This document shows positions 2 through 4,504 of a stretch of DNA of 4,526 bases, one piece after another. A program made the translations under genes and the position numbers. Below the pieces are notes generated by a model that was given only the letters and a program-made list of their open reading frames with translations, was not told the DNA's origin and searched no databases. Source of the stretch: Escherichia phage EC6098; the sequence record MT185428; one strand, written 5' to 3'. Numbering within the stretch: position 1 is the stretch's first letter; each line of letters begins with the position of its first letter.

Positions 2-29
2 GTTAAACTAAATATACATTATGCGCACT
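2..29 (-). other. dif-like XerC/XerD recombination motif (candidate attachment site), reverse orientation relative to canonical E. coli dif
   Basis: Plus strand 2-29 is GTTAAACTAAATATACATTATGCGCACT. The reverse complement of E. coli dif (GGTGCGCATAA-TGTATA-TTATGTTAAAT, recalled from memory) is ATTTAACATAATATACATTATGCGCACC. By hand alignment: XerC arm 10/11, central hexamer 6/6, XerD arm 7/11, total 23/28. Confidence 0.5.
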
Positions 30-41
30 AAGGTGCGCATA
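20..41. repeat. Perfect 9-bp inverted repeat TATGCGCAC-(TAAG)-GTGCGCATA; duplicates the XerC-arm-like sequence in inverted orientation
   Basis: Positions 20-28 (TATGCGCAC) are the exact reverse complement of 33-41 (GTGCGCATA), with a 4-nt spacer. The repeat overlaps the dif-like motif and lies just upstream of the Rep ribosome-binding site. Confidence 0.9.
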
Positions 42-62
42 TGCGTATTCTGGAGGTGTGTC

Positions 63-926
63 ATGGCTTGTACCCGTCCTTTGAACGCGTACCAGATGCC
101 ATCGGGGAAGATTTTTTTCACGCCGTCACGTGGCGCTAAATTCATTCAGTTGCCCTGCGGTCAGTGCATCGGTTGCCGTCTTGCTCATTCTCGTGACTGG
201 GCGACCCGCTGCGTTCATGAAGCCCACATGCACGATCACAATTGTTTTATCACCCTGACTTATTCGCCTGAGAATTTACCTGAAGGCGGTACTCTCGTTC
301 GTAAACATTTCACCGATTTTATGAAGCGTTTGCGTAAGGCTTTGGCTGTTGATGATATTTCGATTCGTTTTTTTGGCTGTGGTGAATATGGCTCTAAATT
401 AGAGCGACCGCATTATCACGCGATTATTTTTGGATATGACTTTCCGGATAAGACATTACACAAGGCTGGAAGATTTAATTTATATAGGTCTTCGCTTCTT
501 GAAAGATGTTGGACTTTTGGTTGGTCTGTTGTTGCTGCTTTTAGTTTTGAGTCGGCTGCTTACGTGGCGCGATACTGTGTTAAAAAAGTCACCGGTTCCC
601 GTGCAGATGAGCATTATGGACATCGCATACCCGAGTTTTCGGCTATGAGCAACAGGCCTGGTATTGGCTATGATTTTTTTATGGAATATTACGATGACAT
701 AGTTAATTCAGATGCGTGTATTGGTCGCGGCGGTCGTCAGATAAAACCGCCCCGCTATTATGACAAGTTATTATCAGGCTGTGATTTTGAGAAGTTGCAG
801 CAAAATAAAGAACGCCGACAGTTAAATGCCCAGGTATTAGACCCGTGGCGTTTGCAGGATTTGGATAAATTTAATCTGGTTAAATTCCAGCGAATGATGA
901 GGAAATTAGAAAATGGCTCACTCTGA
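63..926 (+). CDS. VP4: Rolling-circle replication initiation protein (HUH endonuclease, Microviridae VP4 / phiX174 gpA-like)
   Basis: Carries the three rolling-circle motifs: FITLTY (motif 1), HYHAIIFG (HUH motif 2) and YVARYCVKK (motif 3, two tyrosines spaced like the phiX174 gpA catalytic pair, YVAKYVNKK as recalled). Cys-rich N-terminal segment CGQCIGC...C...HEAHMHDHNC. Start chosen at ATG 63 because GGAGG at 52-56 lies 6 nt upstream. The track's ATG at 21 has no Shine-Dalgarno sequence and sits inside the palindrome, so it is less likely. Confidence 0.9.
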   Translation: MACTRPLNAYQMPSGKIFFTPSRGAKFIQLPCGQCIGCRLAHSRDWATRCVHEAHMHDHNCFITLTYSPENLPEGGTLVRKHFTDFMKRLRKALAVDDISIRFFGCGEYGSKLERPHYHAIIFGYDFPDKTLHKAGRFNLYRSSLLERCWTFGWSVVAAFSFESAAYVARYCVKKVTGSRADEHYGHRIPEFSAMSNRPGIGYDFFMEYYDDIVNSDACIGRGGRQIKPPRYYDKLLSGCDFEKLQQNKERRQLNAQVLDPWRLQDLDKFNLVKFQRMMRKLENGSL

Positions 927-1182
927 TGCAGTTTATGTAATTCACGACAAGCTGATTAATGCTGATGTTTTTATGTTTATGGCCCAGCATGACGGTATTG
1001 CGAAAGGACATTTGCACGCGTTTTGTAACCGTATGCAGCGCACTGATTTTTCGTTGCACCGCGTGACTGCTTATGATTTTGCTGACCAGCAGCTGGTTCC
1101 GGTCGATATTGACCGTGTTTATGTTTGTGAAGCTACTCCGGCGTTCCTGAAGGATTCTGAAGATGCGTACATCGAAGCCTAA
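913..1182 (+). CDS. VP5: Small protein downstream of Rep, VP5-like (possible ssDNA synthesis/packaging accessory protein); function not established
   Basis: 89-aa ORF whose start overlaps the Rep stop by 14 nt (ATG 913, Rep stop 924-926). Same strand and syntenic with gokushovirus VP5. Purine-rich GAGGA about 10 nt upstream. Assignment rests on position and size, not on a recognised motif. Confidence 0.55.
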   Translation: MAHSDAVYVIHDKLINADVFMFMAQHDGIAKGHLHAFCNRMQRTDFSLHRVTAYDFADQQLVPVDIDRVYVCEATPAFLKDSEDAYIEA

Positions 1183-1660
1183 GTTCCATACCCGCTATAA
1201 CCCGCCACCGTCGCCCGGCATCGTGTTTGAAGAACCGACGATGACCCAGCAGCATTTTCGCGACGAGTGCGACATTAACAAGATTGTTGAGCGTGCGATA
1301 AGAACGGGAGACACGACAGTCTTTACCAGTGCTCAACGTGCTGAATTCTACGATGCATCCGCGATTACTGATTACGTGGACGCAATGGCTTTAATTGACG
1401 ACGTTCACGACGACTTTAAGAGCCTGCCGTCCACGATTCGCTCGATGTTTGGTAATAACGTTAAACAGTACGTTGAGTGGATGAGTAATCCAGCAAACTG
1501 GAATCAAGCGCGTGAGCTTGGATTGTTGAGCGGCGGAGAGGTTTCGGCGACCGAACCGAAGGTTCGCGAGTCGGAACCTGCTCCGGCGTCCCCGCGGGAG
1601 CGTTCCGGTGCTGAAATGAATAAAGCACCAGATGCAGGTTCCGAACCTGCCAAAACCTGA
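1163..1660 (+). CDS. VP3: Internal scaffolding-like protein (VP3-like), acidic
   Basis: 165-aa ORF immediately upstream of the capsid gene, overlapping the VP5-like ORF by 20 nt. Acidic, D/E-rich core (DECDINKIVERAIRTGD...DYVDAMALIDDVHDDF) resembling gokushovirus VP3 as recalled. The C-terminal 45 aa are Pro/Ser/Glu-rich and probably disordered. Start is uncertain: an in-frame ATG at 1241 (MTQQHF...) is an alternative. Confidence 0.7.
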   Translation: MRTSKPKFHTRYNPPPSPGIVFEEPTMTQQHFRDECDINKIVERAIRTGDTTVFTSAQRAEFYDASAITDYVDAMALIDDVHDDFKSLPSTIRSMFGNNVKQYVEWMSNPANWNQARELGLLSGGEVSATEPKVRESEPAPASPRERSGAEMNKAPDAGSEPAKT

Positions 1661-1680: not shown

Positions 1681-1717
1681 CCTGGCACAGCGCCCTACTT
1701 GATGTAACTGTGCCAGG
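1681..1717. repeat. Intergenic hairpin: 10-bp perfect inverted repeat (CCTGGCACAG / CTGTGCCAGG) with a 17-nt loop containing ACTTGAT
   Basis: Positions 1681-1690 are the reverse complement of 1708-1717. Loop 1691-1707 is CGCCCTACTTGATGTAA. Lies in the 157-nt VP3-VP1 intergenic region. No T-tract follows, so it is not an intrinsic terminator. Confidence 0.85.
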
Positions 1718-1729
1718 TGACACCGAAAC

Positions 1730-1759: not shown

Positions 1760-1817
1760 AGGTGTCAGTTTATACAGTAGTTTGTATAGTATTTAAACAA
1801 TTCCCTGAGGGGGGTTT
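1760..1817 (+). promoter_or_regulatory. AT-rich leader of the capsid gene with a candidate -10 element (TATAGT, 1785-1790) and G-rich Shine-Dalgarno sequence (GAGGGGGG, 1807-1814)
   Basis: TATAGT matches TATAAT at 5/6 and is preceded by TG at 1783-1784. No convincing -35 hexamer at 17-bp spacing. The Shine-Dalgarno core lies 3-7 nt upstream of ATG 1818. Confidence 0.3.
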
Positions 1818-3518
1818 ATGAGTAAATTCGGTCGTAAAGTACCTAGTAATGCAAAAAGTCAGCATAATTTTTCAGTAATCCCGAGTGCCAATATTCAGCG
1901 TTCGGTCTTTAACCGCAGCTCTGGTTATAAAACCACTTTTGACGCTGGTTATTTGATTCCCGTGTTTCTGGATGAGGCTTTGCCGGGTGATACGTTCCAC
2001 CTGAAAACGTCCGTACTGGCGCGTTTATCCACGCCAGTGGTGCCGTTTATGGATAACCTGCGACTGGACATCCAGTATTTTTCCGTGCCCTACCGTCTGG
2101 TCTGGGATAACTGGCAGAAGTTCAACGGTGAGCAGAAGAATCCAGGCGATTCGACGGATTACCTTATCCCGCAGATTAAAGCCCCTGCAGGCGGCTTCCC
2201 TGTAGGCTCCCTTGCCGATTATTTTGGTGTTCCCACAGGTGTGGAGAATATCAGTGTAAGCGCTCTGCCGTTCCGCGCTTATAACCTGATTTATAACGAG
2301 TGGTATCGTGATGAAAACCTGATTAATTCCGCCCCGCTTCCGCTTGGCGATGAGGAAGAAACAGGCCTCGCCAATTTCCCGCTGCGTAAGCGTGCCAAGC
2401 GTCACGATTACTTCACAAGTGCCCTGCCGTGGCCTCAGAAAGGTGAAGGCGTTGAGATTGGTTTAGGCGTTCCGCCGTCGTATACGCTGGAGTACCCTTA
2501 TTACAAGGAAGGTATGGGATTTATTTCGTCTAACTATGGTGCGTCTGGAAATATTGGTCGTACTTTTCCGACGTATATTGCTCGTAGTAGTGTTGGTGAT
2601 GATTCTTCATCTAACATTGGTAATGCTGCTTATTTTTCCGAAGGCCTGGAGAATGGTATTAATTTTCCGAATGCTCCGGCTCGTGGTCGCTATGATGTGC
2701 TTGGTGGTTTTGACCCCAATACACCTCCGGTTACGTTGAAGAAAGAAGGTGGTGAAGTTGTTGATAACCTCACGATTAACTCGCTGCGTCAGGCGTTCCA
2801 GCTTCAGCGGCTGCTTGAGCGTGATGCTCGCGGTGGTACGCGATACATTGAGATTATTCGCAGTCATTTTGGCGTCATTTCTCCTGATGCCCGTGTTCAG
2901 CGTCCTGAGTATCTTGGCTCTGGTTCGTTCGATATAAATATTAATCCCGTTCTTCAAAACTCCGCGACTACCGACGCCAGTCCGCAAGGTAACCTTGCCG
3001 CTTATGGCGTTTCAGGAGGTGTTAACCGTGGTTTTTCTCACTCTTTTGTTGAGCATTGCTTTGTTATTGGCCTTGTCTCCGTTCGAGCAGATTTGACCTA
3101 CCAGCAAGGCATTCCGCGCATGTTCTCCCGTCAGACCCGCTTTGATTTCTACTGGCCTGCACTGGCCCACCTGGGCGAACAGGCTATTCTTAACAAAGAG
3201 ATTTATGCGCAAGGTAACGCCAAGGATGATGAAGTCTTTGGCTACCAGGAACGTTATGCGGAGTACCGCTACCGACCGTCCCAGATTACTGGTAAATTGC
3301 GTTCTACCGACCCGCAATCCCTCGACGTGTGGCATTTAGCCCAGCGGTTCGACTCTCTGCCCGCACTGAATCAGGAGTTTATCGAGGAGAATCCACCGAT
3401 GAAGCGCGTTCTCGCCGTACAGGACGAACCCCAGTTCATCATGGATGCGTTCTTTGACCTGAAGTGTGTGCGGCCTATGCCTGTTTACTCAGTACCAGGT
3501 CTTATTGACCATTTCTAA
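1818..3518 (+). CDS. VP1: Major capsid protein (Microviridae VP1 / F-like)
   Basis: 566-aa ORF with strong Shine-Dalgarno sequence. N-terminus MSKFGRK...FSVIPSANIQRSVFNRS...FDAGYLIPVF and the central block LRQAFQLQRLLERDARGGTRYIEIIRSHFGV are characteristic of Microviridae capsid proteins as recalled. A Gly/Ser/Asn-rich insertion at roughly aa 210-315 is consistent with the gokushovirus surface loop. Confidence 0.95.
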   Translation: MSKFGRKVPSNAKSQHNFSVIPSANIQRSVFNRSSGYKTTFDAGYLIPVFLDEALPGDTFHLKTSVLARLSTPVVPFMDNLRLDIQYFSVPYRLVWDNWQKFNGEQKNPGDSTDYLIPQIKAPAGGFPVGSLADYFGVPTGVENISVSALPFRAYNLIYNEWYRDENLINSAPLPLGDEEETGLANFPLRKRAKRHDYFTSALPWPQKGEGVEIGLGVPPSYTLEYPYYKEGMGFISSNYGASGNIGRTFPTYIARSSVGDDSSSNIGNAAYFSEGLENGINFPNAPARGRYDVLGGFDPNTPPVTLKKEGGEVVDNLTINSLRQAFQLQRLLERDARGGTRYIEIIRSHFGVISPDARVQRPEYLGSGSFDININPVLQNSATTDASPQGNLAAYGVSGGVNRGFSHSFVEHCFVIGLVSVRADLTYQQGIPRMFSRQTRFDFYWPALAHLGEQAILNKEIYAQGNAKDDEVFGYQERYAEYRYRPSQITGKLRSTDPQSLDVWHLAQRFDSLPALNQEFIEENPPMKRVLAVQDEPQFIMDAFFDLKCVRPMPVYSVPGLIDHF

Positions 3519-3535
3519 GTTACATTGTCACTTTT

Positions 3536-3558
3536 GGCCTCTGCGGAGGCCTTTTTTT
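3536..3558 (+). terminator. Rho-independent terminator between the capsid and pilot genes
   Basis: GGCCTC-(TGCG)-GAGGCC forms a perfect 6-bp GC-rich stem (3536-3541 / 3546-3551) with a 4-nt loop, followed by seven T residues (3552-3558). Begins 18 nt after the capsid stop codon (3516-3518). Confidence 0.8.
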
Positions 3559-3572
3559 CATGAGGTGAAATT

Positions 3573-4352
3573 ATGGGCTTTTTATCATCTGCCGTTGGTG
3601 CTGTTGGTTCCATTGCCGGTTCTCTTCTCGGTGCCCACTCTGCCCAGCAGAACGCCGCACAGGCGAACAAGTTAACGATGGATTTGGCCAAAAACGGTAT
3701 GCAGTACCGCGTACAGGATTTGCGAAAAGCTGGTCTTAACCCGATTCTGGCCGTTACTGGTTCCGGTGGTCTTGGTTCCGTCAGTTCGTCAGGTATTCAG
3801 GCCGCCCAGCCTGCCGATTTCTCAGGAGTGGTTAATTCTGCGGTTAGCGTATTTGACGCCTTAACGCGCCGTCAGCAGCAGGAAGTTGCCCGTGAAGGCA
3901 TCATGTCTCAGATTGCGTTACAACGTAACCAGATTGCGAATAGCGCGGCTGATGTGAAGCTTAAAGAGGCTCAGGCTGCCCAGGCTATCCAGAGTGCCGA
4001 TAACATGCGATCGCAGTCGAATCTGATTAATCAGCAGGTTTTGACCGAGGCTTCCCGCCGTGCCAATATTGAATCTCAGACAGGCCTTAATTCTGCACAG
4101 CGGATTAGAACACAGTATCAAACTATGCAGGATAAGGTTATTCATGACTATTTACAGACTGATGCCGGTAAGGCTTCTACGGTAGGTTCTTATGATGCAA
4201 AATCTGGCGGGCTTCCAGCTCTTGGTAATTATATTTTTGGTGCTGGCGCTCGTTTCTTTGGTGATAAAAGTTCTGCGAAAGCGGTAAGCAAGGGGGGACG
4301 CCTCCCCCCTAACCAGTTCCAGCAGCAATTGATTAACAACTATAGGAGGTAA
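3573..4352 (+). CDS. VP2: DNA pilot / minor capsid protein (VP2-like, functional analogue of phiX174 H)
   Basis: 259-aa ORF with Shine-Dalgarno GAGGTG (3562-3567) 5 nt upstream. Gly/Ala/Ser-rich hydrophobic N-terminus (MGFLSSAVGAVGSIAGSLLGA) followed by a long Gln/Ala-rich, probably coiled-coil segment. Sits directly after the capsid gene, as in gokushoviruses. Confidence 0.75.
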   Translation: MGFLSSAVGAVGSIAGSLLGAHSAQQNAAQANKLTMDLAKNGMQYRVQDLRKAGLNPILAVTGSGGLGSVSSSGIQAAQPADFSGVVNSAVSVFDALTRRQQQEVAREGIMSQIALQRNQIANSAADVKLKEAQAAQAIQSADNMRSQSNLINQQVLTEASRRANIESQTGLNSAQRIRTQYQTMQDKVIHDYLQTDAGKASTVGSYDAKSGGLPALGNYIFGAGARFFGDKSSAKAVSKGGRLPPNQFQQQLINNYRR

Positions 4353-4354
4353 TT

Positions 4355-4474
4355 ATGGCTCGTTCTCGCCGTCGTATGTCTAAGCGTTCTTCCCGTCGTT
4401 CGTTCCGTAAGTACGCAAAGACGCATAAACGTAACTTTAAAGCCCGCTCCATGCGTGGCGGCATTCGTCTTTGA
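4355..4474 (+). CDS. Small arginine-rich DNA-binding/packaging protein (phiX174 J-like; gokushovirus small basic ORF)
   Basis: Hand translation gives MARSRRRMSKRSSRRSFRKYAKTHKRNFKARSMRGGIRL (39 aa, roughly 45 percent Arg/Lys), ending at TGA 4472-4474. Consensus AGGAGG at 4344-4349 lies 5 nt upstream of ATG 4355. The start is 2 nt past the VP2 stop codon. Not in the supplied ORF track, presumably because of a length cutoff. Confidence 0.75.
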   Translation: MARSRRRMSKRSSRRSFRKYAKTHKRNFKARSMRGGIRL

Positions 4475-4504
4475 TTGACAAAGTTGATCGTAACGATCTA
4501 TGAT
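4475..4504 (+). promoter_or_regulatory. Candidate sigma70 promoter reading rightward across the window end (toward Rep if the genome is circular)
   Basis: Perfect -35 TTGACA at 4475-4480, an 18-bp spacer, then -10 TATGAT at 4499-4504 (5/6 to TATAAT). Predicted transcription start near 4511. Located immediately after the small basic ORF stop codon. Confidence 0.5.
4486..4498. repeat. Short palindrome GATCG-TAA-CGATC containing two GATC (Dam) sites, within the promoter spacer
   Basis: Positions 4486-4490 (GATCG) are the reverse complement of 4494-4498 (CGATC). Lies between the -35 and -10 elements of the candidate promoter. Confidence 0.6.

Follow-up and report, generated by a model that had tools for sequence, protein, structure and literature searches.

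Genes at the locus and the geometry of their junctions

The 4,526-nucleotide (nt) stretch of Escherichia phage EC6098 DNA analysed here (sequence record MT185428), hereafter called the window, carries six open reading frames (ORFs), all on the same strand and, according to the ORF list and family matches, in the order VP4-VP5-VP3-VP1-VP2-VP8 (Table 1). This analysis concerns the first three, which encode the replication initiator Rep, a small VP5-like protein (ORF5) and the internal scaffolding protein VP3, and in which each downstream gene begins within the 3' end of its predecessor. The window, identical to the IMG/VR entry UViG 2974561223_000001, is the circular form of an E. coli Enterogokushovirus prophage (Microviridae, Gokushovirinae). 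Membership in this group is very likely, judged from the 86-94% nucleotide identity to gokushovirus prophages that lie beside hipA in seven complete RefSeq E. coli chromosomes; identity to Microvirus mar4 is 86%. Enterogokushovirus prophages have been described as elements of 4300-4700 bp that conserve the gene order VP4-VP5-VP3-VP1-VP2-VP8 and carry a dif-like motif, in an account that gives the gene order without discussing the junctions or their translation (Kirchberger & Ochman, 2020; PMC7062461). The window is like such prophages (e.g. EC6098) in size class, six-gene order, dif-like motif and integration in the dif/hipA region.

An earlier note on this DNA had read the gene junctions as evidence of translational coupling, and its coordinates, re-read from the sequence, are all correct. 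Rep and ORF5 share 14 nt (913-926; ATGGCTCACTCTGA), with the ORF5 ATG inside the Rep 3' end, and ORF5 and VP3 share 20 nt (1163-1182), with the VP3 ATG inside the ORF5 3' end; as the starts at 63, 913 and 1163 are 0, 1 and 2 modulo 3, the three genes occupy three different frames. The small basic ORF begins at 4355, 2 nt past the VP2 stop codon, as had been described. The proposed gene identities hold as well, for Rep and VP3 by the family matches to PF23343 and PF09675, and for ORF5 by weak profile matches, position and fold.

The comparison of start positions across related genomes which the earlier note had proposed reveals an identical ATG-stop geometry, with the Rep TGA at -14 and the ORF5 TAA at -20 (negative values denoting overlap) in 15 of 15 genomes, down to 65% ORF5 identity, as found by script and as called by three independent annotation sources. 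The Prokaryotic Genome Annotation Pipeline (PGAP) calls an 864-nt Rep and a 270-nt ORF5 with the same overlaps in all seven E. coli prophages, which differ from the window by sequence divergence only. More divergent copies of the junctions were collected by way of the protein database and look-ups of contigs, and in four of the most divergent ORF5 clusters, retrieved along with their contigs, Rep again ends 14 nt past the ORF5 ATG and VP3 starts 20 nt before the ORF5 stop. In an alignment of 11 genomes the GAGGA motif, ATG 913, the Rep TGA, ATG 1163 and the ORF5 TAA are invariant. Since the same ATG and stop positions recur in 15 genomes, and both downstream ORFs display codon periodicity and nonsynonymous divergence (dN) far below synonymous divergence (dS), the overlap arrangement is not due to chance. 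A scan of IMG/VR with the VP3 protein returned 73 loci. In just three of them VP3 comes after VP5; the others are arranged VP2-VP3-VP8-Rep and are uninformative for the VP5/VP3 junction. A second scan with the ORF5 alignment found the same three loci.

Within the 14-nt overlap diversity among the 15 genomes is about 0.03 at every codon position, both frames being highly conserved, which reflects double coding together with the invariant ORF5 N-terminus MAHSDAVYV. The 20-nt overlap codes for the C-terminal tail of ORF5, which is variable and predicted to be disordered, with a predicted local distance difference test score (pLDDT) below 50 at residues 86-89 of the model and a mean of 49 in the last block, as well as the variable VP3 residues 2-4; because of this variability and modelled disorder, the overlap would cost little. 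The overlaps are the usual compaction of a 4.5-kb single-stranded DNA genome, an already known organisation whose junctions are visible in public annotation.

Table 1. Genes, Shine-Dalgarno (SD) motifs and other elements of the window; SD energies (kcal/mol) refer to the duplex with the 16S 3' end, the mean over all window positions being -2.4 kcal/mol
Feature	Coordinates	Strand	Details	SD energy
dif-like motif	2-29		23/28 to reverse complement of E. coli dif consensus	
Hairpin	17-43		DNA fold z -3.7	
Rep / VP4, rolling-circle replication initiator	63-926	+	PF23343 E=1.4e-20; PHROG 942 E=1.8e-113; TGA 924-926	-10.6 (ATG 63)
SD-like GAGGA of ORF5	899-903	+	9 nt ahead of ATG 913, within the Rep gene	-6.3
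ORF5, VP5-like small nonstructural protein	913-1182	+	89 amino acids (aa); TAA 1180-1182	
SD-like AAGGA of VP3	1150-1154	+	8 nt before ATG 1163; overlaps in-frame TGA 1148-1150	-5.5
VP3, internal scaffolding protein	1163-1660	+	165 aa; PF09675 E=5e-34; stop 1658-1660	
Hairpin	1682-1718		VP3-VP1 intergenic; DNA fold -11.7 kcal/mol, z=-3.5	
Promoter-like site	1762-1790		9/12; ahead of VP1	
VP1	1818-3518	+	PF02305 E=4e-185	-11.7
Terminator-like element	3536-3558		GGCCTC-TGCG-GAGGCC, then T7	
VP2, DNA pilot / minor capsid protein	3573-4352	+	PHROG 8693 E=8e-20; TAA 4350-4352	-6.9
SD AGGAGG of VP8	4344-4349	+	inside last VP2 codons; 5 nt before ATG 4355	-11.5
VP8-like small basic DNA-binding protein	4355-4474	+	39 aa; PHROG 10695 (conserved 39-aa family) E=1.6e-10	
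Sigma-70-like promoter	4475-4504		TTGACA-18-TATGAT, 11/12	

Coding status of ORF5 and start codons of VP3 and Rep

With an in-frame TAG at 907-909, ATG 913 is the only possible start of ORF5. Across the 15 genomes diversity in the ORF5 frame is 0.196, 0.120 and 0.352 at the first, second and third codon positions, 68 of 79 third positions being variable compared with 67 of 157 at the other two positions (Fisher p=6e-11), and pairwise dN/dS amounts to 0.16-0.37. Homologues fall into 23 clusters, including Salmonella, down to 65% identity and of 88-89 aa save for one truncated cluster of 55 aa. The window ORF5 scores 20.1 bits with Phage_ORF5 (PF20577), below the gathering score of 27; this profile is matched by 16 of 18 members of the ORF5 family at E<=0.01 (best 2.3e-5), and PHROG 1670 matches ORF5 over its full length (E=0.005). 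An AlphaFold2 model with a pLDDT of 86.7 has 53 matches in BFVD at E<=1e-3, the few named ones being Microviridae 'nonstructural' or 'DNA binding' proteins with template modelling (TM) scores of 0.55-0.70. As the direct likeness to the VP5 proteins of the type gokushoviruses Chp2 and phiMH2K is weak (BLASTP over 24 residues, E=0.001; hhalign against Chp2 plus phiMH2K VP5 at a probability of 17%), the assignment is based on the fold together with weak Pfam matches throughout the family. Judged by purifying selection and by a modelled fold of the microvirus nonstructural type, the VP5-like ORF5 is a real gene.

The earlier note had left the VP3 start undecided between 1163 and 1241. The frame is closed upstream by the TGA at 1148-1150 and offers these two ATG codons only, of which ATG 1163 has an SD energy of -5.5 kcal/mol and is invariant in the 15 genomes; ATG 1241, which encodes Met27 of the longer ORF, has an energy of -1.0 kcal/mol and hence no SD. 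The 58 nt from the ORF5 stop to 1241, that is VP3 codons 8-26, evolve as coding sequence, with diversities of 0.095, 0.060 and 0.283 at the three codon positions in the 15 genomes, 17 of 20 variable third positions versus 10 of 38 first and second positions (p=2e-5) and dN far below dS in ten of ten comparisons. Profile alignments begin at residue 12 for PF09675 (117.7 bits with a cutoff of 25; residues 12-144 on profile positions 3-130 of 134) and at residue 5 for PHROG 1642. The VP3 proteins of Chp2 and phiMH2K carry 20-22 residues ahead of the conserved TQQ..ECDIN motif, similar to the N-terminal stretch of about 20 residues in the window VP3. Because of the upstream stop at 1148, the missing SD at 1241 and the purifying selection on codons 8-26, and in agreement with the profile extents, 1163 is the favoured start, and on the sequence as it stands VP3 starts there, which settles the choice. 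The GenBank call for VP3 of Microvirus mar4 begins 60 nt further upstream, giving an overlap of 80 nt, in a frame which is closed by a stop in the window; this annotation is probably too long.

The earlier note had also raised the scenario of a VP3 made from Met 1241 and a VP5-like ORF without expression; the overlaps would then be artefacts of annotation. The sub-threshold score of the window ORF5 with PF20577 and the many distant tblastn matches to VP3 that begin at residue 26-28 speak for it; it is contradicted by purifying selection, which acts both on codons 8-26 of VP3 and on ORF5, by the strong codon periodicity and confident fold of ORF5, the profile matches from residues 5-12 and the absent SD at 1241, and is close to refuted. 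Sequence searches of PDB with VP3 and ORF5 returned no relatives, so that there was no deposited chain with an experimentally defined N-terminus.

For Rep, the first ATG at 21 lies within the hairpin 17-43, overlaps the dif-like motif and has an SD energy of +1.2 kcal/mol, and ATG 63 is preceded by GGAGGTG at 52-58 and is the start used by PGAP in all relatives. The Rep start is thus likely ATG 63, not 21.

Translation initiation at the two overlaps

Both downstream genes possess SD-like motifs of their own at a conventional distance from their ATG (Table 1). The SD energy of ORF5 stays within -6.0 to -6.4 kcal/mol in 11 relatives, and the sequence upstream of VP3 diverges in these relatives, yet GGAG or AGGA is always there, at -5.5 to -9.3 kcal/mol. 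Folds of 100 nt at 913 and 1163 are weaker than those of dinucleotide shuffles (z of +1.19 and +1.94), with 178 and 199 of 200 shuffles respectively folding at least as well. Opening the ORF5 start region takes an energy that ranks in the bottom 4% of the window and is low in all relatives; for the VP3 start region the energy ranks in the bottom 15%, and in the relatives it does not exceed the average. By fold z-scores and opening energies no inhibitory RNA structure is predicted over the ribosome-binding site (RBS) of ORF5 or VP3.

Rep, the VP5-like protein and VP3 would form a compact co-transcribed block, and the three genes are almost certainly on one messenger RNA (mRNA), as their packing leaves no room for intergenic signals. 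Each downstream cistron has its own conserved ATG, a moderate SD 8-9 nt upstream and little predicted mRNA structure. Because of this combination, the reading we favour, with moderate confidence, is that ribosomes on a polycistronic mRNA start at 913 and 1163 by ordinary SD-directed initiation and that the overlaps stem from compaction. The VP5 start is overprinted on the last five Rep codons and the VP3 start on the C-terminal tail of VP5, which is variable and modelled as disordered. Ribosomes which terminate upstream may add some re-initiation, on which the downstream genes would not depend; such a partial contribution may exist given the invariant geometry, the SDs being the weakest and the documentation of coupling in the absence of RNA structure. 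The weighting of de novo initiation against re-initiation is one that we infer.

Translational coupling has been found to be most efficient at distances of -4 to +3 nt, with overlap lowering it more than spacing does; a systematic study in E. coli observed a steep decay between overlaps of -4 and -25 nt and no coupling at -25, enrichment among natural overlaps is confined to -4, -1 and -8, and coupling without structure over the RBS is documented and enhanced by SD motifs (reviewed by Brown & Wade, PMC12548453). The classical coupled pairs of E. coli, with -4 (ATGA) and -1 (TGATG) junctions, are likewise co-directional, with a start near the stop and an SD inside the upstream gene, but the overlaps of 14 and 20 nt in the window belong to none of the enriched classes (-4/-1/-8) and fall at distances for which weak coupling has been measured (PMC12548453). 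The spacings of -14 and -20 are accordingly outside the efficient range of about -4 to +3 nt, within which the VP2/VP8 spacing of +2 falls. The general statement of the earlier note that such junctions usually mean dependence on upstream termination therefore goes too far, as documented coupling is mainly that of -4/-1 to about +3 nt (PMC12548453).

In a heuristic scan of 32 distant gokushoviruses from IMG/VR, the spacing from Rep to the small ORF ranges from -17 to +66 and an SD is nearly always present; nine of these junctions are -4, four -1, two -11 and two -17, and fifteen genes are separated. Own SDs, the lack of predicted inhibitory structure, the -14/-20 spacing and this free spacing across the subfamily together argue against dependence on upstream translation. 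Of the coupling proposed for Rep-VP5-VP3 the tightly packed, co-oriented block stands, but the dependence on the upstream gene does not, and obligatory coupling is not supported.

Several observations weigh against initiation that is simply SD-directed. The SDs of ORF5 and VP3 are the weakest of the six genes, within about the 8-14% tail of background positions, which makes help from upstream ribosomes plausible; around half of the distant gokushoviruses have classic -4/-1 coupling motifs at the Rep/small-ORF junction; a stop-start distance that is important for re-initiation would likewise account for the strict invariance of -14/-20 in 15 genomes; and the RNA structure predictions are thermodynamic only. 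The weight of the invariant geometry is tempered in that dual coding alone penalises insertions and deletions in overlaps.

There is some support for an obligatory termination-reinitiation relay, in which ribosomes would scan back 14 nt from Rep to VP5 and 20 nt from VP5 to VP3, so that upstream translation sets the downstream yields: co-directional overlapping genes of invariant spacing, internal SDs that are only moderate, structure-free coupling enhanced by SD motifs (PMC12548453) and -4/-1 junctions common after Rep in other gokushoviruses. At -14 and -20, however, coupling in E. coli has largely decayed, with none left at -25 (PMC12548453), and the spacing varies from -17 to +66 across the subfamily, which renders the relay unlikely. 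The supply of scaffold also bears on it. In microviruses generally, the scaffolding protein has to be far more abundant than the catalytic Rep, an excess that a strict relay could not deliver. That the two overlaps constitute a two-step backward-scanning relay which fixes the Rep:VP5:VP3 ratios, by an efficient coupling over unusually long overlaps, is in our view quite unlikely.

Two further explanations turn on what a ribosome at the end of the upstream gene does to the downstream RBS. If a hairpin locked that site and were opened by the upstream ribosome only, as in MS2 coat/lysis, an overlap of 14-20 nt would indeed let this ribosome melt structure around the start (PMC12548453), but no locking structure is predicted, shuffled controls folding better than either junction, and the opening energies are low for ORF5 in the window and all relatives and average at most for VP3, so that this form of coupling is very improbable. 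Conversely, terminating ribosomes could occlude the downstream RBS under their footprint and limit initiation there, as no downstream SD or ATG is more than about 27 nt away from the upstream stop and Rep has a strong SD (-10.6 kcal/mol). The same geometry fits neutral compaction, and since VP3 is needed in abundance a throttling design would be at odds with demand; we regard this negative coupling as quite improbable.

Two other candidates were rejected. A programmed frameshift that fuses Rep with ORF5 or ORF5 with VP3 was discarded, as no X XXY YYZ slippery heptamer occurs in 879-926 or 1129-1182 and in-frame stops lie just before each downstream ATG (907-909 and 1148-1150). As for an internal promoter for VP3, one 9/12 site is found within Rep (734-761), but the total of seven sites does not exceed that in shuffles (5.3 +/- 1.8), and the site is unusable as evidence.

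Related systems and neighbouring elements

Chp2 and phiMH2K have homologous VP1, VP3 and Rep and a small VP5-type protein in compact same-strand genomes. Their gene order differs from that of the window, as VP3 follows VP2; in Chp2 a gap of 29 nt separates ORF4 (Rep) from ORF5, and VP2 and VP3 abut without overlap, and in phiMH2K VP5 precedes Rep, unlike in the window. Owing to these different arrangements, the -14/-20 chain is specific to this lineage. In phiX174 the A-C junction is an overlap of the -4 type and A*, B and K are embedded in A, and its order of Rep, small switch protein, scaffold and capsid resembles that of the window. Among the IMG/VR loci most gokushoviruses, and likewise Chp2, are arranged VP1-VP2-VP3-VP8-Rep-VP5, with VP3 after VP5 in the enterobacterial clade.

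The intergenic hairpin between VP3 and VP1 consists of CCTGGCACAG and CTGTGCCAGG around a 17-nt loop, CGCCCTACTTGATGTAA. Its core ACTTGATGTAACTGTGC recurs with 100% identity in no fewer than 13 distant gokushoviruses from IMG/VR, although their VP3 shares only about 30-38% identity. In the loci checked it is found immediately 3' of VP3, whatever the gene order. There are also matches of 92-96% to unannotated DNA of bajarodmic viruses and of an Eel River pequenovirus. VP3 and this 3' element appear to have moved as a unit. Because the loop resembles the nick site of the phiX174 origin, the hairpin may be the Rep nick site or the (+)-strand origin.

Of the sigma-70-like promoters in the window, the best is situated directly past the VP8 stop, upstream of the dif-like motif and Rep, and, as judged by its sequence and position, is likely the promoter of the Rep-VP5-VP3 transcript; a weaker promoter-like site precedes VP1. 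The terminator-like element between the VP1 stop and VP2 suggests attenuation between the capsid and pilot-protein genes. At the other end of the window an inverted copy of the GTGCGCAT arm of the dif-like motif follows the motif (2-43). One prophage (L001) carries a 27/28 copy of dif at its left end and the phage-type motif at its right end, directly after the window-terminal sequence, and these end motifs, dif copy on one side and phage type on the other, identify the window as the excised circular permutation of the prophage.

At the VP2/VP8 junction the spacing is +1 or +2 in E. coli prophages and +104 in Microvirus mar4, so that tight spacing is not essential there. The VP8-like ORF, a real gene, was detected by tblastn in 35 loci; PGAP omits the 39-aa gene in seven of seven prophages despite 90-100% conservation.

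The outcome of this analysis is at the level of annotation, namely a VP3 start at 1163, a Rep start at 63 and the recognition of the VP5-like and VP8-like ORFs as real genes, with little import beyond it. If true, strong coupling at -14/-20 nt would be a modest addition to the known spacing limits of re-initiation.

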